DNA of 46,870 nt, taken from contig CAWKBC010000038.1 in assembly GCA_963847705.1 (NCBI GenBank), forward strand, positions 1 through 46,870, written 5' to 3'. Made by a program: the position numbers and the translations under genes. How positions within the stretch are numbered: the first letter of the stretch is position 1; every line of letters starts with the position of its first letter. A model generated the notes under the pieces. The model was not told where the DNA came from. It was given only the letters and a program-made list of their open reading frames with translations, and searched no databases. Shown piece by piece: positions 4,328-41,450 of this stretch. The stretch comes from an uncultured Pseudomonadota bacterium (lineage in GTDB: Bacteria; Myxococcota_A; Polyangia; Fen-1088).

Positions 4328-5332
4328 ATGCGTCTGACGAACCTGCGACGTGCACGCGCCAGCCTTTCCGCTCTCACGCTCGTGCTCTTGTTCACCGCGT
4401 CGGGCCAGCCAGCACACGGCGCCGCGCTGTCCGTCGACGCACCGGACTCGTGTGTCGATCCGGCGGCGCTGGCCGACGAGGTGAGCGACCTGATCGGCAA
4501 GCCGCTGGCCTCGGTCGCCGAGGTCGACTTTCGGATTCAGATCGCCAAGACGACGCGCCAGCGGTGGCGCCTGAAGCTGGAGACGATTGGGCTGCGCACC
4601 GCAGGGGTGGGCGAGCCGGCGGTCCGGGGCAGCCGCGAAATCGAAGGGGCGACCTGCGCCGAGCTGGCCGAGGCGGCGTCCGTGGCCATCGCGGTCTCGG
4701 TGCGATCGATCGCCGGCGAGGCCGGCCCGATCGAGCCGCAGCCGCAGCCAGCGCCGGCGATCCTGCCGCCGCCCTCACCGCCGGTCGGGGCGCCGCCCTC
4801 TTTGGAACGCAGCGGAGAAGGGACACCCTCCTGGCGTCCCGCCGTCGCGCTGGCGCTGACCACAGACACCGGCGCCCTCCCCAGCACCAGCATCGGCGTC
4901 GGACTGGCCGGGAGCGTCCAACACCGATCGCTGCAGCTCGGGTTGCTGGCCACCTGGTTCGGGTCGGAGGACGCCACCGGCGCGGACCACACGGGCGGCA
5001 CCTTTCAGCTCGCGGTCGGCGGCGCGCGCGCCTGTTTCGCCCCGCGCAGGGGGCGCTGGACGCCGCTTGCCTGCGGCGGGTTCGAGCTCGGACGCCTGAG
5101 CGGGACCGGACAGGGCGTCGCGCGCCCGGAGACGGGAGAGGCCCTCTGGAGAGCCCTGCGCGCCAATCTGGGCGTGACGATGGCGCTCGGCGGCAATACG
5201 GGGCTCTTGCTGACCGGCGGAGTGGCGGTCCCGCTGGCGCGCCCGGCCTTCGTGCTCGACGGAAGTGAGCTGGTCTACCGGCCGAGTCGCCTGGCGGGTC
5301 GGTTCACGGCCGGCCTCCAGATCGGATTTTGA
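4328..5332 (+). CDS. Exported protein: 2-Cys N-domain, Pro-rich linker, C-terminal beta-barrel-like domain (first gene of ECF cassette 1)
   Basis: Signal peptide, APDSC...GATCAELAEAASVAI domain, PQPQPAPAILPPPSPP linker, and alternating amphipathic strands ending AGLQIGF. Confidence 0.75.
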   Translation: MRLTNLRRARASLSALTLVLLFTASGQPAHGAALSVDAPDSCVDPAALADEVSDLIGKPLASVAEVDFRIQIAKTTRQRWRLKLETIGLRTAGVGEPAVRGSREIEGATCAELAEAASVAIAVSVRSIAGEAGPIEPQPQPAPAILPPPSPPVGAPPSLERSGEGTPSWRPAVALALTTDTGALPSTSIGVGLAGSVQHRSLQLGLLATWFGSEDATGADHTGGTFQLAVGGARACFAPRRGRWTPLACGGFELGRLSGTGQGVARPETGEALWRALRANLGVTMALGGNTGLLLTGGVAVPLARPAFVLDGSELVYRPSRLAGRFTAGLQIGF

Positions 5333-5359
5333 GACGGATTTTGAGCCAGCCTCATTTTT

Positions 5360-5393
5360 CCGAAACGGATTTGCCCCCGCCCGGAGACCCACC
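5360..5393 (+). promoter_or_regulatory. Putative autoregulatory ECF-sigma promoter upstream of the sigma gene
   Basis: ccgaaacggatttgcccccgcccggagacccacc matches 6681-6714 at 27/34 positions without gaps and ends 15 nt before the TTG start. Confidence 0.6.
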
Positions 5394-5408
5394 GGGAGGC
5401 GCGCTGTC

Positions 5409-5969
5409 TTGAAATCGGTCCCGCTCACCCCCGGCAAGCCGCCCCCAGGGCCGCGCGCGCAGCCTGAAGCCCCACAGAGCTTCGATGAGATCTACGACCG
5501 TTACTTTCCCTTCGTCTGGCGCTGCCTGCGCGGGATGGGCCTCGGCCCAGCCGCCCTGGACGACGCTGCCCAGGATGTCTTCCTGGTCGTGCACCGCCAG
5601 CTGGGCGGCTTCCGGGGCGAATCGAGCGCCCAGACCTGGCTGTACGGGATCGCCCGGCACGTGGCCTCCAACCACCAGCGGCGAGACCAGCGCAAACAGG
5701 CGCCGCTCGAGCCTCTGGTGTCCGAGCCCGCGCACCCCGAGCCCGGGCCGCTCGAACGGGCCGAAGACGCGGAAGCCGCAGCGTTCGTGGCGGCCTTCGT
5801 GGCAGGCCTCGACGACAAGAAGCGAGATCTCTTCATCCTCGCGGTGCTGGAAGAGATGACCATCCCCGAGGTGGCCGCCGCGCTGGCGATTCCGCTCAAC
5901 ACCGCCTACACGCGCCTCCGCAGCGTGCGGGCCGACTTCGAGCGCGCGCTCGGGAGCCGAAGGTCATGA
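5409..5969 (+). CDS. ECF-type RNA polymerase sigma-70 factor
   Basis: Region 2 (FDEIYDRY..DDAAQDVFL..FRGESS..TWLYGIA) and region 4 (EMTIPEVA..IPLNTAYTRL). TTG start with GGGAGG RBS. Confidence 0.92.
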   Translation: MKSVPLTPGKPPPGPRAQPEAPQSFDEIYDRYFPFVWRCLRGMGLGPAALDDAAQDVFLVVHRQLGGFRGESSAQTWLYGIARHVASNHQRRDQRKQAPLEPLVSEPAHPEPGPLERAEDAEAAAFVAAFVAGLDDKKRDLFILAVLEEMTIPEVAAALAIPLNTAYTRLRSVRADFERALGSRRS

Positions 5970-6736
5970 CCGGCGACGAGCGCGATCCGTCCGAGGTGCT
6001 GGCGCGGGCGCGGCGCGCCTGGTCGCCCGGCCAAGCCGACGCCGCGCGCGTGCGGCGTGCGCTCGGCGCGGCGCTGGCTGCCGACCCTTCTTCGGGCGGG
6101 GGCGCAGCGCCCGCCCGCCCGCCCGAGTCGGCGTCGGCGTCGAGTTGGACTTCGAGGTTCTTGGTCGCGGGCGCGATCGCGGCCGCGAGCGGAGGCGCCG
6201 GGTACTGGGCCGGTCATCGTGCGGGTAGGCGCGAGGGACGGCCGACCACTTCGATGCTCTCGCTTGAGGCTCCGAAGGCGGTGGCTCCCGCGCCGAGGCC
6301 GGCGCTCGCGCCGTCACCCGTTGCGGAGAGCCCGCCGCTGGCGATGCCGTCGGTCGTCCCCTCCCGTCACGACGCCCATGGCGCACGACGCGGCTCGGAG
6401 AGCCAAACACCCACCCAGACCGAATCCCTGGCCATCGAGGTCCGCGCGCTGCGCAACGCCGAGCGGGCGCTTCGCGATGGAACTCCAGGGCTGGCGCTGG
6501 CCTTCCTGCAGGAGCTGGATCGTCAGGTCCCGAACGGCAAGCTGGCCGAGGAGCGCGACGCGGCCAGCACGCTCGCCCGCTGCGCCCGCGGCGATCACCC
6601 CTTCGGCGTCGACCTGGCGGCGGAGTTCACCGAACACCACCCAGGGAGCGTCTACCGCGCCCGCGTCGAGCAGGCCTGTACCGAGACGGATTCGCCCCGC
6701 CTCGGAGACTCATCCCCGAGGAGGTCAGATCGATGA
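5966..6736 (+). CDS. Putative anti-sigma factor (single TM, Pro-rich linker, C-terminal TPR-like helical domain)
   Basis: ATGA overlap with the sigma gene, hydrophobic FLVAGAIAAASGGAGYW segment, and C-terminal LAIEVRALRNAERALRDG..ALAFL..PNGKLAEER helical pattern. Confidence 0.7.
   Translation: MTGDERDPSEVLARARRAWSPGQADAARVRRALGAALAADPSSGGGAAPARPPESASASSWTSRFLVAGAIAAASGGAGYWAGHRAGRREGRPTTSMLSLEAPKAVAPAPRPALAPSPVAESPPLAMPSVVPSRHDAHGARRGSESQTPTQTESLAIEVRALRNAERALRDGTPGLALAFLQELDRQVPNGKLAEERDAASTLARCARGDHPFGVDLAAEFTEHHPGSVYRARVEQACTETDSPRLGDSSPRRSDR
6681..6714 (+). promoter_or_regulatory. Second copy of the putative ECF promoter, upstream of the lipoprotein gene
   Basis: ccgagacggattcgccccgcctcggagactcatc, followed by GAGGAGG RBS and ATG 6733. 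Confidence 0.6.
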
Positions 6737-7569
6737 GAAACGAACGAACGCTGACTCTGGTGGCTCTGCTCTGCGGCGCCGGAGCGCCGCTGGCCTGCTC
6801 GGGCGGCGGGGCCGTCAACATCGGCAACACGAACGTGGCCGGGGCCCAGCTCTCCGACTATGCGGCCAGCTGGGACGGTTACGCCGAGGCTTACACTTTC
6901 AGGCCAGACGGCTCAGACCGGGTTCGTCTGGCGATCGATGCGAGCGGACAGGGGACGTTCCGGGTGGGAAATGCGACGACGCTGCTGTCACCCCCGACCG
7001 ATCCGAACGTCGGATATCCGCCCGGAATTTCGGCGCTCGGCGCGAATGACGGGCCGAGAGAGGACTTTCTGTACCCAATTCACGCGGCGAACGTTCAAGA
7101 GTCCCGGATTCAACTCGGAATCAACACAGAGGATCTCTTCGCGGCCTGGTGCCCTCTGCAGACACCCATTCCGTACTATGAGACCACCACGGTCAACGAT
7201 GCCGGTAGCTCGTACACGGTCACCGCGGCGAGCGACGCCGGAACTGTTTCCACTTCGTACAGTTGCGTGCCCAATCTGGGGGGGATGGAGCAGATCAACC
7301 CGGCCACCGGGACCCCGACGAATTGCACGGTCAACGAGCCCGACGGTTCGAGCGCTCCGGTCGATTGCGACAAGTTCTATCTGTGCACCATGGCGTTCGC
7401 CTGCACCTGCACCGCCAGCGGATGCACCATCCCCCCGATGCCGGCCGACGCGACTGCCGCCCAGTACCCGATCGAGCTCGACGGAGCGCTCGATACCACC
7501 GGAAAAATCCTGACCGGAACGCTGGCGCTCGGCGGTCAGCGCATCACCGTCCACCTGACCAAGCAGTAG
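6733..7569 (+). CDS. Cys-rich lipoprotein of unknown function
   Basis: Lipobox PLAC, C-terminal half with multiple Cys (CDKFYLC..FACTCTASGC), ATGA overlap and strong RBS. Confidence 0.78.
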   Translation: MRNERTLTLVALLCGAGAPLACSGGGAVNIGNTNVAGAQLSDYAASWDGYAEAYTFRPDGSDRVRLAIDASGQGTFRVGNATTLLSPPTDPNVGYPPGISALGANDGPREDFLYPIHAANVQESRIQLGINTEDLFAAWCPLQTPIPYYETTTVNDAGSSYTVTAASDAGTVSTSYSCVPNLGGMEQINPATGTPTNCTVNEPDGSSAPVDCDKFYLCTMAFACTCTASGCTIPPMPADATAAQYPIELDGALDTTGKILTGTLALGGQRITVHLTKQ

Positions 7570-20382: not shown

Positions 20383-20386
<4 letters not shown>

Positions 20387-21126
20387 GCGGCACCTCCTGC
20401 GTCCGACTTGCCGCCCGCGCCGCCGGATCCGCTGCCGCCGGCGCCGCTGCCGCCCGTTCCGTTCCCGCCGCCCGCCCCTTTGCCGCCCGCGCCGCTCATG
20501 CCGCCCCCGCCGCCCGTCCCCGCCGCACCGCCGGTTCCGCTGCCGCCGGTCCCTTTGCCGCCTGTCCCGCTGCCGCCGGTCCCGCTGCCGCCCGTCCCGT
20601 TCCCCCCGGTGCCGTTCCCGCCGGTGCCGGGGCCGCCCGTCCCGCCCCTGCCGCCCATTCCGCCCGAGCCGAGCTCGCCCCCGGTTCCACCGCCCCCGCC
20701 GGTCCCTGGAATCGCGTCGCTGCCGCCGTCGACCGGGGGTGGCGATCCCGAAACCAACGTGACGACGACGATGGTCTGCCCCCCGACGTTGATGTCCTGC
20801 TGCGTGGTCATCCCCTCGGCGACCAGGGACCCGGCGCTGTTGATCGCCGCGACCGCGACCGTCACCGGCCCCGTCAAGTCGGGCGCCAGCTCCACGCTCA
20901 GGCTGGCCGGAAGGGTGATGGCGGCGCCGTCCTTCGGCGCGATCTGGAACGTACGCTGCTGCATCTGCGAGGGATCGACCGTCACGCTCAGGGACGCAGG
21001 CATGATCGACAGATCGCCCGCCACCTCGACGAGCAGGATCGAATCGCCGCGGTGGCAGGCAGCGAACACCGTCGACGCGGCGACGGCCGCAGCCGGGATG
21101 AAGACGCGATGGCGATGGGAGCGCAT
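20383..21126 (-). CDS. Lipoprotein with long Gly/Thr/Ser-rich C-terminal tail
   Basis: Lipobox FAAC, ~120-aa beta-rich domain, then (GGxGT)n tail. The start overlaps the stop of the upstream TPR gene. Confidence 0.72.
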
Positions 21127-21841
21127 CAAAACTTGTAGTTGCCGAGGTCGGTGGAGGGAGGGACGGTGGCCGGCGTCCGCAGCGCGAGATAGGCCCCCAC
21201 CGCACCACCGGCGACGGCGGCGCCGACGGCCAACCAGAGCCAGGTCTTGCCGTGGTGGCTTTCGCCCGCGGACGGGGCCAACGCCACCGGCGCCGGCTGA
21301 ACGAGCGTCGCCGCGGGCGGCGGCGCCACCGGCGCGGGGGGCGGTGAGTCGTCGACCAGTGGCGGGCGCTCGGCCGACAGATAGGGAGACGGCGTGGTGA
21401 TCGGGCGAAGGGGCGGTGGCGAGGTCGGGCGCTCGGGCCCCCGGCTGTTCGGTCGGCTGGGCGCGGCACCCGCGACGGGCGGGTCCGTCGCGGCGAGCGG
21501 CGTCGCGCTCAGTGTCGATATCTTGGCCTCGATCTGGGCGCGGTTGGGGGCGGCTGGAACGGCCTCCAGAAATGCGCGGTAGTCGGTGACCGCCTTCTCG
21601 TCCTGCCCGATGCGCCGGTAACACTCCGCCCGGTTGAAGAGCACCACCGGATCGCCGAGCTTCTTGAGAGCCAGCGTGTACTCATGGATCGCCGCCGGGC
21701 AGTGGTCGTCGCCGGCCAGATCATTTGCCTTGCGCAGGTGGTAGCGCCCCTCGGAGATCGCGTGCTCGGAGGGGGACGCCGCCCGCGCGGCGCCACCGGC
21801 CGCCAGCAGGAGCGACACCGCCAGTGCGACGGCGCCGGTCT

Positions 21842-21845
<4 letters not shown>
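21126..21845 (-). CDS. Exported TPR protein with Pro-rich linker and C-terminal hydrophobic segment
   Basis: Signal peptide, TPR pattern AAIHEY..LFNRAECYRRIG..AVTDYRAFL, and C-terminal TWLWLAVGAAVAGGAVG..PSTDLGNYKF. Confidence 0.82.
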
Positions 21846-23992
<2,147 letters not shown>

Positions 23993-26791: not shown

Positions 26792-27508
26792 ATGTTACCG
26801 CTCATCCTGCAAGCCGGCGCTGGAGAAGCGCGGCTCGACATCATCTCGCTCATCTTGAACGCCTCCCCGGTGGTGAAGGGGGTGCTGGGGCTGCTCATCC
26901 TGATGTCAGCCGCCTCCTGGTTCGTGATCGGATCGAAGACGCTCTACCTGTCGGCCGCCGCCTCGCGCTCGGCGAAGTTCCAGGATGCATTCTGGAAGAC
27001 CGGACGCCTCGACGAGATCTGGCGCATGAGCGAGGCCGCGCCGCCGTCGCCGGTGGGCGAGGTCTTTCGCGCCGGCTACACCGAGCTCGCCAAGCTGCAG
27101 AAGCGGCGACAGGACAACGCGGACCCGGCGGGCGAGGCTTTTCTCGGCGACATCGAGAGCGTCGAGCGGGCGCTCGATCGGGCGCGGACGACGGCCATCA
27201 CCGAGATGGAGTCGCGCGTGCCGCTGCTCGGCACCACCGCCAGCGCCGGCCCGTTCATCGGCCTCTTCGGCACGGTGTGGGGCATCATGAACTCCTTCCG
27301 CAACATCGGCGCCAAGGGGGCGGCCAACCTGGCCACCGTGGCGCCCGGCATCGCGGAGGCGCTGGTCGCCACCGCCATCGGCCTCATGGCCGCCATCCCG
27401 GCCGTCATGGCCTACAACTACCTGTCGCGGCGGATCCGGGTCATCACCTCCGAGATGGAGACCTTTTCCAGCGACTTCCTGAACATCGTGCGCCGGAGGT
27501 TCTTCTAG
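26792..27508 (+). CDS. tolQ: Tol-Pal proton channel subunit TolQ
   Basis: [21 protein letters not shown] and [16 protein letters not shown] motifs. GGAGG RBS. Confidence 0.94.
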
Positions 27509-27510
27509 CC

Positions 27511-27921
<411 letters not shown>

Positions 27922-28617
27922 ATGGCGCGCGAGATCATACGGCGCGGGTCGCGGCGAAACCTGGCCGGGATCCTGTTCACGGTGGCTCTGCACGGCGGGG
28001 TGCTGCTGGCCGTGGCGGCCGCGCACAACAAGCCGGAGCCGCCGCTCATCATGCCGCACGACTTCGTGCGCGCCGAATTGGTGAAGCTGGGCAAGCCCCG
28101 GGATCCGTTCTGGCTTCCACGAATCACCCAGCCTCCGAAACCGACCGCCCCACCCAACCAGCTCAAGGTCTCCGAGGATCCCGACGCCAAGGCGGCGCCC
28201 AAGGAAGCGCCGCGCCCCGAGGATCCGAAGATCTCCAAGGAGCTGAAGAACGCGCTCGATCGCGCCAAGAAGCTGGAAGCGCTGGCCGCGGACGACGACG
28301 ACGACGAGGGCTCGCTCACCGGCTCGAAGCTGGGGGCGTCGAACCGCGCCGTGGGAGACCAGTACCAGGCGCAGGTCCTCGGCCTCTTGCGGGCCAACTT
28401 CAACTTTCCGGCCGGCCTCACGCCCGATCAGGTTCCGGTCCTTCCGGAGATCACCTTCCGGATCGCGCCCGATGGAACGATCGGCGACGTCAAGCTCGCC
28501 AAGTCGTCCACCAACAGCTTCGTCGACGACGCCTGCGTCGACGCCGCCAAGCTGACTGGCAAGGTTCCTCCGCCTCCTCCGACCATGCATGGTATGAGAG
28601 TCCAGTGCGTCAAGTGA
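27922..28617 (+). CDS. tolA: TolA/TonB-like energy transducer
   Basis: N-terminal TM with T..LH motif, Pro/Lys-rich linker and C-terminal TonB_C-like domain, located between tolR and tolB. Confidence 0.78.
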   Translation: MAREIIRRGSRRNLAGILFTVALHGGVLLAVAAAHNKPEPPLIMPHDFVRAELVKLGKPRDPFWLPRITQPPKPTAPPNQLKVSEDPDAKAAPKEAPRPEDPKISKELKNALDRAKKLEALAADDDDDEGSLTGSKLGASNRAVGDQYQAQVLGLLRANFNFPAGLTPDQVPVLPEITFRIAPDGTIGDVKLAKSSTNSFVDDACVDAAKLTGKVPPPPPTMHGMRVQCVK

Positions 28618-29945
28618 CCCGGCGGCTGGTCGGCACTTCCCCGCGTCGGCGCTTCGGGCGTCTCGCGCTTGCTCGCCTCGCGCTCGTGTCGCTGCTGGCG
28701 ATGGCGGCGGTGGCCGCTCCGGCGCGCGCCCAGCCCCCCGGCGGCGACGACGATCTCCCCGCGGTGCAGCTCTCCGGCGCCGGCGTCGAGATGCTGAAGC
28801 TGGCGCTCCCCCGCTCCGAGGGAGACCCCGCCGCCGGCGAACTGCTGTCCAAGGACATGGACATCACCGGCCTCTTCCAGTTGCTCGATCCGGCGTCGTT
28901 CCCCGCGCAGCTGCAGGCCGAAGGGCTCGGGTTCTCGTCGGCGCTCTGGTCGCAGGTCGGCGCGCAGGCGGTCATCAAGATGAAGCTCGCCGGCGGCGTG
29001 CTCGAGGGGCGTCTCTTCATCGTCGCGCGCGGCGATAGCCCGGTCCTCTCCAAGAGCTACCGCGCGGCCGATCCGCGCGACGCCGTCCACCAGTTCGCCA
29101 ACGACGTGGTCAACGCCTTCACCGGCCAACCGGGGGTGTTCGGCTCGCGCATCGCGCTGGCGCTCACCGGGCACGGCCCGCACGAGATCGCTGTCGTCGA
29201 CATGGACGGCGGGCGGACGGCGGTGGTCACCAAGATGGGCTCGGACAGCCTGCTGCCGGCGTTCTCACCGACGGGGGCCGAGATCGCCTTCACCTCGTAT
29301 TTGCGCAACAACCCAGACCTCTACATCGTCTCGGCGGGGGGCGGACGCGCTCGCCGCGTCTCGAAGCAGCCGGGGCTCAACACCGGCGCCGCCTGGGCGC
29401 CGGGCGGGCACAGTCTGGCGCTCACCCTGTCGTACGAGGGGAACTCCGAGCTCTACAAGATCGATCCCGGCGATGGCCGGGTGGAGGCGCGCCTGACCAA
29501 CAACCCCGCCATCGACAGCTCGCCCGCCTTCTCGCCCGACGGATCGCAGATCGCCTTCGTCTCGAACCGACAGGGCTCGCCGCAGATCTTCATCATGTCG
29601 GCGTCAGGCGGCGGCGCCAAGCGGGTCACCTTCCAGGGGAAGTACAACCAGACGCCGCGCTGGAACCCGCGCGCGGACAAGCCGCAGATCGCCTTCACCG
29701 GACGCGACGAGCGAGGCGTGTTCGACGTCTTCATCCTCGACGTGAAGAGCGGGAGGGTTGACCGCGTGACGCAGGGAAAGGGCTCCAACCTCGACCCGAC
29801 CTGGTCGCCGGACGGACGCCTTTTGGCCTATGTGTCGAGCCGGGGCGGCCTCTTCGTGAACAACCCCGAGACCCACCACGAGGTCGAGGTCTGGCGGGGA
29901 AGCGCCTCGTCCCCCTCCTGGGGTCCCGCGCCCAGCACCCGCTAG
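28614..29945 (+). CDS. tolB: TolB beta-propeller protein
   Basis: Signal peptide, TolB N-domain and PD40 repeats (PAFSPTG, WAPGG, PAFSPDG, PTWSPDG). GTGA overlap with tolA. Confidence 0.92.
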   Translation: MTRRLVGTSPRRRFGRLALARLALVSLLAMAAVAAPARAQPPGGDDDLPAVQLSGAGVEMLKLALPRSEGDPAAGELLSKDMDITGLFQLLDPASFPAQLQAEGLGFSSALWSQVGAQAVIKMKLAGGVLEGRLFIVARGDSPVLSKSYRAADPRDAVHQFANDVVNAFTGQPGVFGSRIALALTGHGPHEIAVVDMDGGRTAVVTKMGSDSLLPAFSPTGAEIAFTSYLRNNPDLYIVSAGGGRARRVSKQPGLNTGAAWAPGGHSLALTLSYEGNSELYKIDPGDGRVEARLTNNPAIDSSPAFSPDGSQIAFVSNRQGSPQIFIMSASGGGAKRVTFQGKYNQTPRWNPRADKPQIAFTGRDERGVFDVFILDVKSGRVDRVTQGKGSNLDPTWSPDGRLLAYVSSRGGLFVNNPETHHEVEVWRGSASSPSWGPAPSTR

Positions 29946-35111: not shown

Positions 35112-35807
35112 TCACCCCGCGCGGAACTGAAAGTCGCGTTCGCGCACGACCTGCCGTTCGACGAGGTCGACCAGGAAGGCGCGCCCCTCGCCGATCATCC
35201 CGTTGAAGGTGAGCAGGTACCAGACGTCCACCGCCCAGCGGACGTGGCCGCTCTCGCAGGGCGGCGACCACTCGGTCGGTTCGAGATCGCCGAGCCCTGG
35301 CGGTCGGACGCGGCCGTTCACGCGCAGCTCGCGGAACGGCGTCGACGCCCGCACGATCTCGACGGCGTTCGAGGCCGCCACGGGCTGGATCTGCCGCCGC
35401 CATTCGCTGACGAGCCGCAGCCGCGCCGGGCTGCCCCCGAGGTCGGTCTCCGCCTCGTAGGCCTCGTCGGCGGGCAATCCCGCGAAGTCGGAGACGTCGA
35501 ACTCGGGGAAGAGATCCTCGGCGGCGATCTCCTTTTCGCGCGCCGCGACCGCCTCCTCGAGCTCGCGCCGCCGGTCAGCCGTGTAGTAGGCGTAAAGCCG
35601 CAGCGCCGCGTGGCGCGAGGGGAGCTTGTGATCCCAGTCGATCACCCAGAGCGCCCCGGCGTAGTCGGCCTCGCCAAACGGAACCAGCGGGGGAATCGTG
35701 GCCGCGATCTGCGCCCTTGCCTCCGCCCCCTCGAACAGTCCCTGCTGCGCGAGGCGCGGGTGAACGCGCATCTCGAATCTCAAAAGGTCGCGCAGGTCGA
35801 GCGCCAT
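35112..35807 (-). CDS. Hypothetical protein
   Basis: Host-like codon usage, globular composition and TAAAAT 9 nt before the ATG. No family recognised. Confidence 0.7.
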   Translation of the reverse strand: MALDLRDLLRFEMRVHPRLAQQGLFEGAEARAQIAATIPPLVPFGEADYAGALWVIDWDHKLPSRHAALRLYAYYTADRRRELEEAVAAREKEIAAEDLFPEFDVSDFAGLPADEAYEAETDLGGSPARLRLVSEWRRQIQPVAASNAVEIVRASTPFRELRVNGRVRPPGLGDLEPTEWSPPCESGHVRWAVDVWYLLTFNGMIGEGRAFLVDLVERQVVRERDFQFRAG

Positions 35808-35912
35808 AAGCGCCCGATTTTACGTCGGCGGGCGCGCGGCGCCTAGCGAAGTACTTTACGGGACGCCAAAAGCACCGCGCGCCCCTCGCGCGGGGGGGGC
35901 ATACTGGCGACC

Positions 35913-37112
35913 GTGCCCTCCCGGCGGCTCGAGTGGGATCCGGCCGAAAACGCTCTGGCGGCCCTCACGCGCGCCGCTTCGGCGCGCGGTGCGCTCGACC
36001 TGACCGAGACGAACCCAACCCGCGTCGGGCTCCCCTATCCGCACCAGGCAATCGCCGCCGCGCTGGCGCGCGCCCCCATCGCCACTTACGACCCGGCGCC
36101 GCTGGGGCGGCCCGAGGCGCGCGACGCCGTGGCGGCGGACTACGCCCGCGCCGGCGTCGCGGTCGATCCGGAGCGCGTGGTGCTCACCGCCAGCTCCAGC
36201 GAGTCCTACGGGTTCCTCTTCAAGCTCTGCTGCAACCCCGGGGACGCCGTCCTGGTGCCGGAGCCGAGCTACCCGCTGTTCGAATACCTGACGCGGCTCG
36301 AGGGGGTCGTCCCCGTCGGCTACCGGCTGGCGTTCGACGGCGTCTGGCACGTCGACTTCAGCAGCGTGACCGAGGCGGTCACGAGCGCGCGCCGCCAAGG
36401 CCACCCCCCGCGCGCCATCATCGTCGTCAACCCGAACAACCCGACGGGCTCGTTTCTCAAGCGCGACGAGCTGGCGCGGCTGTCGGCGATCGCGGCGAAG
36501 GAGGAGCTGGCCCTCATCTCGGACGAGGTGTTCGCCGGCTATCCCTTCGCGCCCGACCCGACGCGCGTCACCGCCGCCGCCGTCGACGCCGCGCTCGATG
36601 ACGGCGCTTCCGTCTTCAGCCTGGGAGGCCTGTCCAAGGCCTGCGGGCTGCCGCAGCTCAAGCTCGGCTGGATCGTCGCCGGCGGTCGCGACGCCAGGCG
36701 AGCGGTCGCCGCGCTGGAGCTCATCGCCGACACCTATCTCTCGGTGGCCACGCCGGTGCAGGCAGCGCTCGCCGAGCTGCTGGCGCTGGGCGCCGAGGTG
36801 CGCGCGGCGATCGGGGTTCGCATCGCGGAAAACCGGGCGCGACTGCGCGCCGCGCTGCCGCCCGAGTCCGGTTGCACGCTGCTCCCCACCGAGGGGGGGT
36901 GGTCGGCCATCCTGCGCGTCCCCGCCAGCCGCAGCGACGAAGCCTGGGCGGCGGCGCTGGCGACCGAAGCCGGCGTGCTGGTGCAGCCCGGTTACTTCTT
37001 CGATCTGCGGGGCGGAACCTTTTTGGTTCTCAGCTTGCTCCCGTCGTCTGACCTCTTCGCCGCTGCGATCGCGCAACTTGTCGCGCATGTCGAGTCGGTG
37101 CTGAGATACTGA
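35913..37112 (+). CDS. PLP-dependent aminotransferase class I/II
   Basis: PEPSYP, VNPNNPTG, SDEVF and GLSK..GLP..KLGW motifs. Confidence 0.92.
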   Translation: MPSRRLEWDPAENALAALTRAASARGALDLTETNPTRVGLPYPHQAIAAALARAPIATYDPAPLGRPEARDAVAADYARAGVAVDPERVVLTASSSESYGFLFKLCCNPGDAVLVPEPSYPLFEYLTRLEGVVPVGYRLAFDGVWHVDFSSVTEAVTSARRQGHPPRAIIVVNPNNPTGSFLKRDELARLSAIAAKEELALISDEVFAGYPFAPDPTRVTAAAVDAALDDGASVFSLGGLSKACGLPQLKLGWIVAGGRDARRAVAALELIADTYLSVATPVQAALAELLALGAEVRAAIGVRIAENRARLRAALPPESGCTLLPTEGGWSAILRVPASRSDEAWAAALATEAGVLVQPGYFFDLRGGTFLVLSLLPSSDLFAAAIAQLVAHVESVLRY

Positions 37113-37115
37113 GCC

Positions 37116-38216
37116 GTGGCCGTGGCCCTCGCACCTGCCTACGCAATCGCGATCTTGATGACCGCGGGGCCCGACGACGGCTGCCCTTCGCCGCGCCAGC
37201 TGGCCGACGCCCTCTCGGCGCATTTGCCCGGGATGGTGCTGCCGTTTGGCCACGCCACCGGCCCGACCACGCTGCGCCTCGGGGTCGCGATCGACGCGGC
37301 CGGGGCGATGCGGCTCGATCTTTATGACCCGGAGGGGGGACCGCTCCTCCATCGCTGGCTCCCGCCGAGCGATCGCACGCACGCGGGTGACTGCCCGGCC
37401 CTGGCCGAGACGGCCGCGCTGATCGTGGAGCGCTACTGGCACGAGGTCGGTTACGACGTCCCGCTCGAAACCCCGAACGCCCCACCCAAACCACCGCAGC
37501 CGAAGGCGACAGCGCCTCCACCCCCAGCTCCGCCTCCACCTCCGCCACCGAAGGCCGCCCCACCTCCGCCGCCCAGACCTGCGCCGCCGCCGGCCCCTCC
37601 GCCGGTGGCCGAGAAGGTGAGCCCACCGCCGGAGCCCCAAGCTCGTCGGCCGCAGCCTCCGGCCGAACCCTTGCCGCCGCCACGGTGGTGGATCGGCGGC
37701 GGCGCGGAGGGCCTCCTGACCGCTTCGGGAGATCGCGCCGGCGCGGCCGTCCTGGCGATCACCCTCGAAGGCCTCGCCTTCGGGCGACGCCTGGGACTCC
37801 GGCTGTCGGCGGGCGCCGAGACCGGCGTCTCGGTTCCGGTTACGAGCGGCGGATGTGCACAACCAAAGGCGTGCAGCGCCGACGTGCTCCGGTTCCCGGC
37901 GCGGATGGGTGCCTACCTGCCGATCTCGCTCGGGGTCGGCCAGCTCGAGCCCGGAATCGGCGTCGACCTCGGCGCCATCGAGGTCACCTACCGGCACGGA
38001 TCGACCTCCCAGACGCACCTCGGCGTCACCCGCGGAATCGACGCCGCCCTCGGCTGGGCGCTGCCGCTGCCGCATCATATTTATATTCGGGCATTGGCTC
38101 AGGCCGTGACGGAGGTCCCCTACCACGTCGTAACTGCCTCTAACGACACGGCAATCTTCACTACTCCCAGTTTCCGCTTCGTGCTTGGGATAGAATTGGG
38201 CGTTTGGTTTCCCTGA
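37116..38216 (+). CDS. Exported protein: 2-Cys N-domain, Pro-rich linker, beta-barrel-like C-domain (first gene of ECF cassette 2)
   Basis: GPDDGCPS..GDCPALAETAALIV domain, long Pro tract and amphipathic strands ending LGIELGVWFP. Confidence 0.75.
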   Translation: MAVALAPAYAIAILMTAGPDDGCPSPRQLADALSAHLPGMVLPFGHATGPTTLRLGVAIDAAGAMRLDLYDPEGGPLLHRWLPPSDRTHAGDCPALAETAALIVERYWHEVGYDVPLETPNAPPKPPQPKATAPPPPAPPPPPPPKAAPPPPPRPAPPPAPPPVAEKVSPPPEPQARRPQPPAEPLPPPRWWIGGGAEGLLTASGDRAGAAVLAITLEGLAFGRRLGLRLSAGAETGVSVPVTSGGCAQPKACSADVLRFPARMGAYLPISLGVGQLEPGIGVDLGAIEVTYRHGSTSQTHLGVTRGIDAALGWALPLPHHIYIRALAQAVTEVPYHVVTASNDTAIFTTPSFRFVLGIELGVWFP

Positions 38217-38244
38217 TGAAGCGAAACCGAGTGGGTCACTAATC

Positions 38245-38841
38245 ATGGCAGAGGGTCCCGTGAACACGCCTGGCCTGATGCGCGCCGCTCCGAGCGGTGG
38301 AAGCTTGACCGCCGACCTGGACATGGTGGCGCGGTGCCGCCGTGGCGATGGGGTCGCGTGGCGCGGTCTCTATGACCGCTACGCGCCGATCGTCTATCGG
38401 TTCCTTTCGGCCTTCGGCGTGCCGAACGAGGATCGGGAGGACGCCTGTCAGGAGGTGTTCGTCGCCATCTACCGGAGCCTGGCCCGCTTCCGGGGTGAGG
38501 CGCGGCTCTCGACCTGGATCTATCGGATCGCGGCCCGCCACGCCGGCCGCATCTCTCGCCGCCGCCGCGTGCGGGGCCTCCTGTCGACGCTGCTCCTGCG
38601 GGAGCCGCCGCCCCCTCCGGCGCCGGATCCTTCGGAGCGCAGCGAGCGGCTGCAGCTCCTCGACGAGCTGGTGAGCAAGCTGTCGCCCAAGAAGCGGCTG
38701 GTGCTGGTCCTGTTCGAGATCGAGGGGGTCCCCATCGAGGAGGTCGCCAAGATCGCGGGCTGCCCGGAGAACACCGCCTGGTCGCGGCTGCACTACGCGC
38801 GCGCCGAGCTGGTGGCGATGGCCAAGAAGAGGGTGCGGTGA
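38245..38841 (+). CDS. ECF-type RNA polymerase sigma-70 factor
   Basis: LYDRY..EDACQEVF..FRGEARLSTWIYRIA and LFEIEG..EEVA..PENTAWSRLHYAR motifs. Confidence 0.94.
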   Translation: MAEGPVNTPGLMRAAPSGGSLTADLDMVARCRRGDGVAWRGLYDRYAPIVYRFLSAFGVPNEDREDACQEVFVAIYRSLARFRGEARLSTWIYRIAARHAGRISRRRRVRGLLSTLLLREPPPPPAPDPSERSERLQLLDELVSKLSPKKRLVLVLFEIEGVPIEEVAKIAGCPENTAWSRLHYARAELVAMAKKRVR

Positions 38842-40319
38842 CGCCGCAGCACCGCTGGCCCGACGGCCCGGACGAGGTCTCGGCCGAGCTGCGGCGCGCC
38901 CTGGACGAGGCAGCGCTGCGCGGCCCCGACGACATGACCCTGCGGCGGGGGTGGAGCGCGGTCGCCGTGCCGGTGCAGCCTGCGCGCACGCGGCGCGGGT
39001 TCTGGTTTGCCGGCGGCGTGGCGACGACCGCCGCGCTGGTGCTGGCCGGATCGTTCTGGCTCTGGCCGCACCCGACGGAGCTGGCCGCAGGGGGACACCT
39101 GAAGGCGCCCGCCAGGAGCGAGAGCCCCATCGCGCCGGGAGCGCGCCGGCTGACGCTCGAAGGGGGCGTCGAGGCGGTGCTCGGCCGATCGAGCGTCATG
39201 CGGCTGGAGGACGGCGCGCCGCGGATCGAGGTGGGCGAGGTCCGGTTCAGCGTGCCGCACCGCCAGCCTGGGCACCCGTTCGTCGTCCGCGCCGAGGGCT
39301 ATCGCGTGGTCGTCGTCGGCACCCGGTTCGGCATCAACGTCGACGGCAAGAGCGACAGCGTCGATGGCAAAAGCGACGGCAGGAGCGACGGCAAGGCCGA
39401 CAGCAAGCCGGAGGGGACCAAGGCGGTGGCGGTCGACGTCGACGAAGGGATCGTCGAGGTCTGGGACGCGGCCACCCAGCGCCGTCTGGCGCGGCTCACC
39501 CCCGGCGAGAGCTGGCAGAGCCCCGAGGTCGCCGCCCGGGCGCCGTCCGGGCCTGCCGAGGTCGAGCCGACGCCCGCGTCCGGCTGGCCGGCGCCGACGC
39601 TCTCGACGCCGCCGCGCACTCTTCGACACTCGGGCAAGCATCCGGGAGCCCGCAGCTTGGCGCTCGCCTCACCGGGTGAGACCACGACGACCAGCGACCG
39701 CCTGCCGAACCCGGCCGAAGCGCCCACCGCCGAGTCGGCGGCCGCCCGCGCAGCGCTCGCTTCGGGGGACGCGCCGCGCGCGCTGCAGCTTTACCGCGCG
39801 CTGGCGCAGGGGACCGGCCCTTCGGCCGAGAACGCCTCCTACGAAATCGGGAAGGTTCTGAACGAGAAGCTCGGGCAGCCTGCCAACGCGGTGGCCGCCT
39901 GGCGGCACTACCGGACGGCAAACCCCGACGGGCTTCTGCGCGCCGAGGCGGACGTGTCGATCATCGAGACGCTCGCCCGCACCGGCGACACCGACGAGGC
40001 GCTGTCGGAGGCGAACGACTTCCTGCGGCGCCGCCCCGACAGCGAGCGGCGCGCCGAGATCGCGCGGCTGGCCGGCGATCTCTACCGAGCGCGGGGCGAC
40101 TGTCACCGCGCCCTCGCGGCTTACCAGATCACGCTGGGGGCTTCGCGCCCCCGCGACGCCGTCGAGGCCGCCACCTTCCATCGCGCGGCTTGCCTGGTCC
40201 ATCTCGGCGATGCGGGCGGCGCCGACGCCGCGCGGGCCTACCTGCGCGCCTACCCGAGCGGAAAGTTCCGTGGCGAGGCGGCGGCGCTGGCGGGCGGCGG
40301 TTCCGCGCTGCATCCGTAG
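38838..40319 (+). CDS. Anti-sigma factor candidate with FecR domain and C-terminal TPR repeats
   Basis: GTGA overlap with the sigma gene, single TM, FecR pattern GEVRFSV..PFVV..VVVGTRF..V.V.EG.VEV, and TPRs ending YLRAYPSGKF. Confidence 0.85.
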   Translation: MTPQHRWPDGPDEVSAELRRALDEAALRGPDDMTLRRGWSAVAVPVQPARTRRGFWFAGGVATTAALVLAGSFWLWPHPTELAAGGHLKAPARSESPIAPGARRLTLEGGVEAVLGRSSVMRLEDGAPRIEVGEVRFSVPHRQPGHPFVVRAEGYRVVVVGTRFGINVDGKSDSVDGKSDGRSDGKADSKPEGTKAVAVDVDEGIVEVWDAATQRRLARLTPGESWQSPEVAARAPSGPAEVEPTPASGWPAPTLSTPPRTLRHSGKHPGARSLALASPGETTTTSDRLPNPAEAPTAESAAARAALASGDAPRALQLYRALAQGTGPSAENASYEIGKVLNEKLGQPANAVAAWRHYRTANPDGLLRAEADVSIIETLARTGDTDEALSEANDFLRRRPDSERRAEIARLAGDLYRARGDCHRALAAYQITLGASRPRDAVEAATFHRAACLVHLGDAGGADAARAYLRAYPSGKFRGEAAALAGGGSALHP

Positions 40320-40325
40320 GCGGCC

Positions 40326-41450
40326 GTGACGCGGCGGATCTCGCTCGCCTGCGCGCTGCTGGCCATCTTCCTGGGCGCCTGCCAGCAGACACTGGTGCTC
40401 GACGACCTCGCCGACGCCGGGCGACGCGGCACCGGAGGAACCGGCGGAACCGGCGGAACCGGCGGAACCGGAGGAACCGGCGGAACCGGCGGCAGTCCGA
40501 CCGACGCCGGTTCGAGCGACGCGCACTGCCAGGTGCCCCCCGTCAGCTTCACGCCCGACACCCCACAGGTGATTGTGGTCCTCGATCGCTCCTCGATGAC
40601 GACCCAGATGCCGTTCGGATCCCAGGACACCGAATTCACCGCGGCTGCGGCGGACCTCAGCGCCGAGGTCTCGAGTTACCAGGCGAGCAACGGGCAAGGG
40701 CGCGCCACCAAGCCGCCGATCAGCTTTTCGTTCCTGGACTTCCCCGACAGCGCCTCCGACTGCAACGCCGCGGTCGGCTGCTGCGCGAGCGACGTCATGT
40801 CGACACCCAACAGCCAGGCTTTCCAGAACGCGGTCTACTACGCCTGCGGCGCACCCAACGCCTGCGTATCGTCGAACAACCGCCCGATCGCCGCGGCGCT
40901 CACCACCGCCTACGACGCTTTCAACCAGGCGAGCGGCCCGCAGTCCGGCCAGCGGTTCGTGCTGCTGGTGACCGGAGGTCCGCCCAGCGGCCAATGCTTG
41001 ACCCTCGGCGACTGTCAGAGCGCCATCAACGAGGTCGACTCCCTCTTCAAGAAGCTCGACGTGACGACCTACATCGTCGGAATGGGTGACCAGACGAACG
41101 ACAGCTGCCTGCAGGCGATGGCCAACGACGAGGGGTCGGCGCAGTTCTACAGTGCGGCGAGCACGCCCAACGATCTCGTCAGCGCGCTCGAAGCAATCAC
41201 CGGCAGCATCGCCGCATCAGCCTGCCGCTTGACGCTGTCGTCGGGGACCATCTCGGCGAGCCAGCTGGCGGTTCAGTTCCAGGGGACGCCGGTCCTGCCG
41301 GACTTCAAGAACGGCTGGTCCTTCGACGACGGCGGCGGCACGCCGCGCCTCACCCTGCACGGCAGCGCCTGCCAGAGCTTCATCCAGAACTATCCCTTTG
41401 GCCTGCAGATCTCCGACGGTTGCGTCTCGGATCACTTCCCCAATCCCTGA
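40326..41450 (+). CDS. Cys-rich lipoprotein with VWA-like domain
   Basis: Lipobox LGAC, (TGG)7 linker, MIDAS-like VVLDRSSM, P..AAL, VLLVTGG and TYIVGMG. C-terminal NGWS..LHGSAC module. Confidence 0.8.
   Translation: MTRRISLACALLAIFLGACQQTLVLDDLADAGRRGTGGTGGTGGTGGTGGTGGTGGSPTDAGSSDAHCQVPPVSFTPDTPQVIVVLDRSSMTTQMPFGSQDTEFTAAAADLSAEVSSYQASNGQGRATKPPISFSFLDFPDSASDCNAAVGCCASDVMSTPNSQAFQNAVYYACGAPNACVSSNNRPIAAALTTAYDAFNQASGPQSGQRFVLLVTGGPPSGQCLTLGDCQSAINEVDSLFKKLDVTTYIVGMGDQTNDSCLQAMANDEGSAQFYSAASTPNDLVSALEAITGSIAASACRLTLSSGTISASQLAVQFQGTPVLPDFKNGWSFDDGGGTPRLTLHGSACQSFIQNYPFGLQISDGCVSDHFPNP
40431..40493 (+). repeat. 9-bp coding VNTR, 7 copies, encoding (TGG)n
   Basis: accgg(a/c)gga repeated seven times. 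Confidence 0.9.

Follow-up and report, generated by a model that had tools for sequence, protein, structure and literature searches.

FecIRA-type cell-surface signalling combines an outer-membrane protein that carries a periplasmic domain at its N-terminus, an anti-sigma factor in the membrane and a sigma factor of the extracytoplasmic function (ECF) type, and its outer-membrane component is a 22-stranded TonB-dependent transporter. Here we describe two four-gene cassettes, A and B, on contig CAWKBC010000038.1 (C38) of assembly GCA_963847705.1, a stretch of 46,870 nucleotides that we call the window. The host genome comprises 6.1 Mb with 69% GC, and named homologues belong to Polyangia. Like FecIRA systems, the cassettes encode a predicted outer-membrane protein with a periplasmic N-domain, a putative membrane anti-sigma factor (in cassette B with a sub-threshold FecR-like match) and an ECF sigma factor. 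Unlike these systems, they contain neither a 22-stranded TonB-dependent transporter nor an STN match, the predicted barrel has eight strands, and the variable part is a lipoprotein. Our preferred reading, to which we assign a probability of roughly 55%, is that each cassette forms a TonB-independent three-part trans-envelope switch, in which the barrel holds the lipoprotein head and the N-domain of the barrel protein meets the tetratricopeptide repeat (TPR) end of the anti-sigma factor.

A second point of comparison is the Dma1/Das1 system of Bacteroidota (ECF21). The accessible excerpts of two reports describe an ECF sigma factor, a single-pass anti-sigma factor, an eight-stranded outer-membrane barrel and a long disordered tether, a set of parts that resembles our cassettes, and they list lipoproteins (NigD) in the Dma/ECF21 regulon (PMC10927553, PMC7826278). 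In some ECF21 subgroups the barrel is a separate gene at position +2, according to the same excerpts (PMC7826278). Dma itself is a single polypeptide as excerpted (PMC10927553), whereas the cassettes encode the barrel as a protein apart, with a periplasmic domain of its own that would face the TPR. The predicted eight-stranded barrel is common to both designs, and anti-sigma factor and barrel are encoded by separate genes in the window and at all other loci that we read. The cassettes also differ from Dma/ECF21 by a shared N-terminal lipoprotein motif and by the presence of two dozen paralogues. As for taxonomic range, the excerpts report no Dma-type protein outside Bacteroidota (PMC10927553) and assign 99.6% of ECF21 to Bacteroidetes (PMC7826278); the cassette host belongs to Polyangia.

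A third comparison concerns ECF267 and ECF210, which include ECFs from Sorangium and Chondromyces (PMC7826278). The excerpts of this classification describe FecR and TPR anti-sigma factors and no TonB-dependent receptor for ECF267, call ECF210 uncharacterised, suggest kinases as input and name no barrel or lipoprotein partner for either group. A FecR-like TPR anti-sigma factor at position +1 in the absence of a TonB-dependent receptor fits cassette B weakly and cassette A not at all. DdvS/DdvA from Myxococcus xanthus likewise pairs a myxobacterial ECF with a single-pass anti-sigma factor that carries periplasmic TPRs, and DdvA is cleaved by RseP once its periplasmic part is lost (PMC11506125, in excerpt). 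DdvA contains a zinc anti-sigma domain and a TPR-CHAT region of ~900 residues, and the excerpt mentions no barrel or lipoprotein partner (PMC11506125). The cassette anti-sigma factors, with 256 and 493 residues, have neither feature and gave no CHAT match. Finally, the SigX-CfrX-CmpX-OprF operon of Pseudomonas aeruginosa shares with the cassettes an ECF gene and an OmpA-family barrel implicated in regulation, but as excerpted it comprises a major porin and a mechanosensitive channel, occurs as a single copy and includes no TPR anti-sigma factor and no swappable lipoprotein (PMC7826278).

From these comparisons we conclude that the module works like FecIRA and the Bacteroides Dma system and belongs to neither, since a defining feature of each is absent. 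We did not find a description of it in the literature searched, a coverage that excludes most subscription papers. The elements that are new here are the shared lipoprotein motif, the positions of ECF-type promoters, and the co-divergence of N-domain and TPR.

Gene coordinates confirm the claim of an earlier note on this DNA that the same four genes (barrel protein, ECF sigma factor, anti-sigma factor, lipoprotein) occur in the same order at both loci, all on the forward strand. Cassette A consists of 4328-5332, an ECF gene that ends at 5969, 5966-6736 and 6733-7569, with 4-nucleotide overlaps between the last three genes. Cassette B comprises 37116-38216, 38245-38841, 38838-40319 and 40326-41450, so that its last three genes also overlap or nearly abut, as had been noted. 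Equally correct was the statement that no TonB-dependent receptor is nearby: the genome contains three PF00593 matches, none of them in the window or beside any cassette. In both cassettes the ECF gene adjoins that of a predicted single-pass membrane protein. Gene order varies among the other cassettes of the host genome.

Barrel protein A (4328-5332) is predicted to contain a Sec-type signal peptide, a periplasmic N-domain, a Pro linker and an eight-stranded outer-membrane barrel. In an AlphaFold2 (AF2) model with a pLDDT of 80.6, the N-domain (residues 33-130, C42 and C110) adopts a beta-alpha-beta-beta-beta-alpha topology and the barrel spans residues 170-334. Barrel protein B (37116-38216) has the same predicted layout behind a very short hydrophobic leader (N-domain, residues 10-111, C23 and C93; barrel, residues 190-365; pLDDT 81.2). 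Only ~10 residues precede its first predicted strand, which makes for an atypically short signal peptide. In both models an alpha/beta domain of ~100 residues is followed by a Pro linker of low confidence and then by eight long strands. Fold searches with barrel A returned VIA Z scores of 17.3 for OmpW (root-mean-square deviation (rmsd) 2.4, 161 residues aligned), 17.2 for NspA and 16.7 for OprF, and those with barrel B 18.1 for the Thermus protein 3dzm (rmsd 3.4, 172 aligned) and 17.4 for NspA; overall, the two match OmpW, NspA, OprF, OmpA and 3dzm at Z 16-18. The earlier suggestion of a small outer-membrane barrel therefore agrees with the models and fold searches for both first genes. The accompanying suggestion of an aromatic C-terminal residue fails for barrel B, the sequence of which ends in W-F-P.

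Neither first gene matched a family in Pfam or NCBIfam scans, and a Pfam scan of 63 aligned barrel members matched no barrel family. The N-domains gave no match to STN or any other Pfam family and middling fold matches (N-domain B: TolB-N, Z 9.2, rmsd 2.7, 96 aligned; 5tse, 8.4; curli complex, 8.2; N-domain A: a ribosome hibernation-factor-like fold, Z 8.5), so that we left this domain unassigned. The similarity of the two first genes, to which the earlier note had drawn attention, is not visible in pairwise BLAST, and iteration of single-family N-domain profiles did not link A with B. Barrel profiles built from the other host-genome paralogues do connect them (leave-one-out E 1.7e-7 and 7.5e-5). 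By this procedure 23 of 26 members score E <0.01, with 0.18 for the best reversed control, and an hhalign comparison of the two genes gave 72.6%. Judged by barrel profile, the first genes are remote homologues. The two Cys motifs quoted for the N-domains are present as described, but by eye ~10 of the 26 host-genome paralogues have a Cys-free N-domain; this feature is a marker of one subfamily, not of the whole system.

The most conserved barrel residues (P185, G261, P302, R305, F308, V316) lie in predicted loops. Because charged residues (E253, R278, R325) alternate along the strands, the models suggest a closed lumen, and threading of the lipoprotein through the barrel appears unlikely given these conserved side chains. 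A search with the family-A profile matched 8,813 clusters at 50% identity, and a look-up of 10 distant homologues returned no functional names.

The ECF sigma factors A (5409-5969; PF04542, PF08281) and B (38245-38841) both pass the Pfam models Sigma70_r2 and r4_2 as well as TIGR02937. Translation of sigma A likely begins at a TTG codon at 5409, conserved in orthologues, rather than at GTG 5265; the real start of sigma B may be located a few codons downstream. A FastTree phylogeny of 47 host-genome ECFs (from 69 region-4 matches, LuxR-type and long sigmas left out) places all 24 cassette sigmas inside a single clade of 30 with a support of 0.977. Three further ECF/anti-sigma operons occur in the host genome (C14:196025-198815, C35:25373-28436 and C47:170479-173259), with a third gene of 520-575 residues; the ECFs of the first two fall outside the cassette clade.

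How tightly is the barrel linked to the ECF gene? The host genome contains 26 barrel genes, 24 of which lie within 1.7 kb of an ECF region-4 match, a count that is biased because 16 of these genes initially came from a visual search next to ECFs. As background, 430 of 5116 genes (8.4%) lie within 3 kb of an ECF-type match. A profile of the N-domain, seeded with both window families, found 10 members, eight of them beside an ECF, and iteration added none; among 15 orthologous loci, the ECF gene is next in all 14 that extend far enough. We then consider three further sets of loci that, like these orthologous loci, were selected by barrel homology alone, and in which related genomes are not independent. 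Loci from 25 other genomes (80 of ~81 distinct barrel matches) contain an ECF in 74 of 80 cases, directly downstream in 67, and an anti-sigma TPR in 63. A set from new genomes (60 loci chosen among 150 matches listed) gave 50 with an ECF, 48 directly downstream, and 47 with a TPR; two of the 10 ECF misses were cut by contig ends. The third set, of family-B loci, shows an ECF in 20/20 and a TPR in 18/20 cases. The expectation that homologues of the first gene stand consistently next to ECF/anti-sigma pairs is well supported by these counts.

Matches occur in 26 of 251 genomes of the phylum, and half of the sampled genomes of the class carry the module (84/161); even so, neither Pfam nor NCBIfam contains a model for its barrels. 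Family B occurs in 39 of 41 genomes of the family. Within the host, 24 of the 47 ECF sigmas examined belong to this module. Barrel genes without an adjacent ECF are found at C34:112127-114068 (L030), C30:497310-498227 (L035) and L179, with a lipoprotein gene next door at C34 and L179. At C2:27169-29417 (L018), two tandem barrel genes precede one ECF, and no lipoprotein follows the anti-sigma factor.

The lipoproteins carry the second line of evidence. Lipoprotein A (6733-7569) has its lipobox cysteine at position 22 and eight further Cys in the mature part; it matched no Pfam or NCBIfam family, and its nearest Atlas clusters (0.86) are a lead only. The mature N-terminus reads C-x7-I-G (6796-6825), a candidate barrel-docking peptide of which C1 and G10 are invariant in all 18 rows of the family alignment. 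Lipoprotein B (40326-41450; Cys19) is unrelated to the lipoprotein A family (hhalign 0.4%) and begins with a Gly-less variant, CQQTLVL, ahead of a Gly/Thr linker, while the family-B lipoproteins share the variant motif C-x-x-T-x-V-L. A resemblance of its domain to vWA was perceived by eye and dropped as not significant (5%). Across cassettes, the lipoprotein domains are unrelated and include LamG, GH8, pectate lyase, FG-GAP, PD40, RCC1, Kazal, pacifastin and many unknowns. The heads thus range from lectin-like and lyase-like folds (lyase-like jelly rolls scoring below cut-off) to propellers, Kazal and pacifastin domains.

We noticed the hydrophobic-Gly motif just past the lipidated Cys in the host genome and called lipoproteins with a custom lipobox script, which is prone to misses as well as to false calls. 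A strict pattern set on the host genome occurs in 4 of 409 other lipoproteins of that genome and, in a second set of loci, in 8 of 29 first-downstream versus 6 of 57 distant lipoproteins (p 0.06). We chose the relaxed pattern C-x(2-8)-[LIV]-G after inspection of the second set (21/29 there) and fixed it before testing a fresh set. In that set, 23 of the 29 lipoproteins that come first downstream carry it (in 19 of 20 genomes), compared with 4 of 39 at distant positions; the same peptides, once shuffled, gave 6.0 +/- 2.2, and other adjacent lipoproteins carry it in 9 of 33 cases. Since the 409 non-cassette lipoproteins predicted in the host genome stand at chance level (35 observed vs 37.9 shuffled), we can eliminate the possibility that the motif is a general sorting signal. 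Beyond residue 15, the 44 motif carriers fall into 29 BLAST clusters, which supports the idea that unrelated, interchangeable lipoproteins serve the cassettes. The short motif after the lipid anchor is likely to plug the lipoprotein into the barrel.

The Gly residue lies 7-9 positions past the Cys in 41 of the 44 carriers, a distance that would fit a partner embedded in the membrane that holds the lipid. This spacing bears on a very unlikely alternative, in which the lipoprotein faces the periplasm, its motif makes direct contact with either the N-domain or the TPR, and the barrel serves only as an anchor. In its favour, short peptides are common ligands of TPRs and of small alpha/beta domains, and the lipoprotein may sit on either face of the membrane. 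A constant distance from the lipid, however, points to a partner anchored in the membrane more than to domains tethered by long Pro linkers, and the conserved barrel loops would be left without explanation.

Motif enrichment would fit equally well with a model in which the barrel is a dedicated display or export partner of the lipoprotein, the latter being the sigma output, with the TPR sensing something else and gene linkage serving the lipoprotein. The lipoprotein is also kept beside some barrels that have no ECF (L179 and host C34:112986). Yet the adjacency of barrel, ECF and anti-sigma factor is more constant than the presence of a lipoprotein; together with the promoter and co-divergence data below, this makes display alone an unlikely though credible account.

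Two additional copies of the lipoprotein A family lie outside the usual position (L005:10366-11211 and L007:3682-4443), neither with the promoter pattern described below; the L005 copy has no motif. Several host-genome cassettes cluster at C1:175803-220000 among secreted proteins of carbohydrate-active appearance. Three related lipoproteins there start with C-x-x-T-L-D-A-G, and a fourth gave a weak nucleoside-hydrolase match.

The upstream regions point to separate control of barrel and switch genes. Orthologous intergenic regions (21 of 22; L013 was dropped since its match began at the edge) yielded a matrix for a predicted ECF-type promoter, GAACGGAT-N10-CCGGAGAC, located at 5362-5388 between the barrel and ECF genes of cassette A. 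This site is the top match in the genome (28.4 bits, compared with shuffle maxima of 21.9 and 18.8) and is likely autoregulatory. The second-best match, at 6683-6709, is a predicted copy inside the 3' end of anti-sigma gene A, 24 nucleotides before the lipoprotein start. With 21.5 bits this copy alone is within shuffle range, but 12 of 16 orthologues contain it as well, through codons that the host genome uses rarely (GAT 24%, GGA 8%). Orthologues of anti-sigma factor A end in a conserved T-D-x4-G-D, probably as a side effect of this embedded element. The predicted promoter of cassette B, TGATGAAG...CACTAAT (38214-38243), overlaps the stop codon of barrel gene B and differs in motif from that of cassette A. 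Fixed spacing fits 11 of 20 homologous loci, and the site is again the top genome match (28.6 bits vs shuffle maxima of 19.3-22.0). By eye, a sigma70-like -10 box (TAAGAT/TATACT) is located just ahead of the barrel A start in orthologues. We take all these motifs to be promoters by their likeness to ECF and sigma70 elements.

Since the promoter copies begin after the barrel gene in both cassettes, sigma factor, anti-sigma factor and lipoprotein would be under ECF control, and the barrel gene would lie outside the ECF operon. Their position, together with the sigma70-like box, suggests that the barrel is not simply a sigma output and makes it less likely that its gene is just another part of the ECF operon. 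For the display model the evidence thus cuts both ways: the lipoprotein appears to have a promoter copy of its own, but the barrel gene falls outside the predicted ECF transcript.

A genome scan for sigma A targets found none beyond the cassette itself; for sigma B, two further matches at C27:38094 (23.1 bits) and C21:101866 (22.2) lie only just above the shuffle maxima, and we do not count them as targets. Such a narrow predicted regulon for sigma A would suit a split Dma-like envelope monitor, in which the barrel reports the state of the outer membrane or its assembly, and the docked lipoprotein is a feedback effector instead of a ligand sensor. The excerpts cited above add that Dma1 is proposed to sense through its eight-stranded barrel (PMC10927553), and that some ECF21 subgroups are split (PMC7826278). 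However, a general monitor would not need as many as two dozen paralogues per genome that differ in head and in promoter, and we regard this explanation as distinctly improbable.

Next, we consider how the barrel protein may reach the anti-sigma factor. Putative anti-sigma factor A (5966-6736) comprises a short N-terminal region, an Ala/Gly-rich membrane segment (residues 65-83), a Pro linker and a C-terminal TPR-like module (residues ~152-238, C206 and C238). It gave no Pfam match, FecR included, and owes its putative role to position and architecture. Putative anti-sigma factor B (38838-40319) contains a membrane segment (residues 57-75), a FecR-like region (PF04773, E 3e-4, 21.5 bits, below the cut-off of 24) and C-terminal TPRs (TPR_16, E 1.5e-7). 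Cysteines are confined to the C-terminal part of both proteins, and by eye a Pro linker followed by the same TPR-like module forms the C-terminus of all 24 cassette anti-sigma factors of the host genome.

If the N-domain contacts this module, as the earlier note proposed, the two might be expected to diverge together. For 88 non-redundant cassettes, the partial correlation between N-domain and TPR distances, with ECF and barrel removed, is 0.21, compared with 0.09 for barrel and TPR and 0.12 for N-domain and barrel. The difference between N-domain and barrel in their correlation with the TPR is 0.11 (bootstrap 0.008-0.21). The N-domain therefore co-diverges with the TPR more than the barrel does, a result that is suggestive only and lends the proposed contact indirect support. 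That the N-domain follows the TPR more than its own barrel (0.21 vs 0.12) also argues against the display model. We set mutual information aside as evidence of contact, since it is dominated by subfamily structure (top-10 z: N-TPR 6.0, barrel-TPR 5.5, N-barrel 4.4; permuted ~4.3-4.5).

We can now outline how the three-part switch might work. The predicted eight-stranded outer-membrane barrel would hold a swappable, surface-exposed lipoprotein by way of the motif after the lipid anchor, and the periplasmic N-domain of the barrel protein would contact the membrane anti-sigma factor at its TPR end, a factor that likely keeps the ECF sigma factor inactive. If the lipoprotein head bound a ligand, were cleaved or were lost, the barrel protein would relay this change inward to the TPR, so that the anti-sigma factor is released or cut, probably by RseP-type proteolysis in analogy to M. 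xanthus DdvA. The freed sigma factor would then transcribe its own operon and the lipoprotein gene from the promoter copies.

Several observations weigh against this scheme. Barrel B lacks a normal signal peptide. No ECF was found in the retrieved DNA of 16 of 140 barrel loci or near 2 of the 26 host-genome barrel genes, and six sigmas of the 30-member clade have no adjoining barrel. The strict motif pattern reached only the frequencies given above for the second set; lipoprotein B and several other host-genome cassette lipoproteins have variants only, and in many cassettes the lipobox script detected no lipoprotein at all. Common descent confounds the co-divergence, which is modest in size: the N-domain also correlates with the ECF (0.27), the value for barrel and TPR is likewise non-zero, and the top mutual-information pairs mostly follow one TPR disulfide. 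We also count here the restriction of the predicted sigma A regulon to its own cassette, and the failure of a weak test to find any fused anti-sigma/barrel homologue of 635-2000 residues.

If the proposed switch is real, it would represent a third route across both membranes, after TonB-dependent transducers and fused Dma proteins, and one with a replaceable sensing head. In the accessible excerpts, ECF classification leaves these Sorangium-type groups without known input (PMC7826278). As a more tentative extension, which we hold at somewhat less than even odds, the unnamed barrel family would be a universal socket and the cassettes a modular receptor class: any lipoprotein that gains the ten-residue plug could become the sensing head of an ECF switch, with a handshake between N-domain and TPR that requires no TonB. 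Head swapping would then have given myxobacteria dozens of private sensing channels in each genome, and new sensors could be engineered in the same way.

The remaining observations concern neighbouring genes. A gene for a class I/II-like pyridoxal phosphate aminotransferase (window 35112-37112) ends 3 nucleotides upstream of barrel gene B, and by eye such a neighbour is present at ~12 of 20 family-B loci, often accompanied by a divergent gene of 231 codons without an NCBIfam match. Four genes at 26792-29945 may correspond to tolQ, tolR, tolA and tolB, which they resemble. A minus-strand run at 20383-23889 encodes a long protein that may bind haem, a small lipoprotein of cytochrome-like appearance, a secreted protein resembling TPRs and a further lipoprotein, and gave a weak match to TIGR02552.

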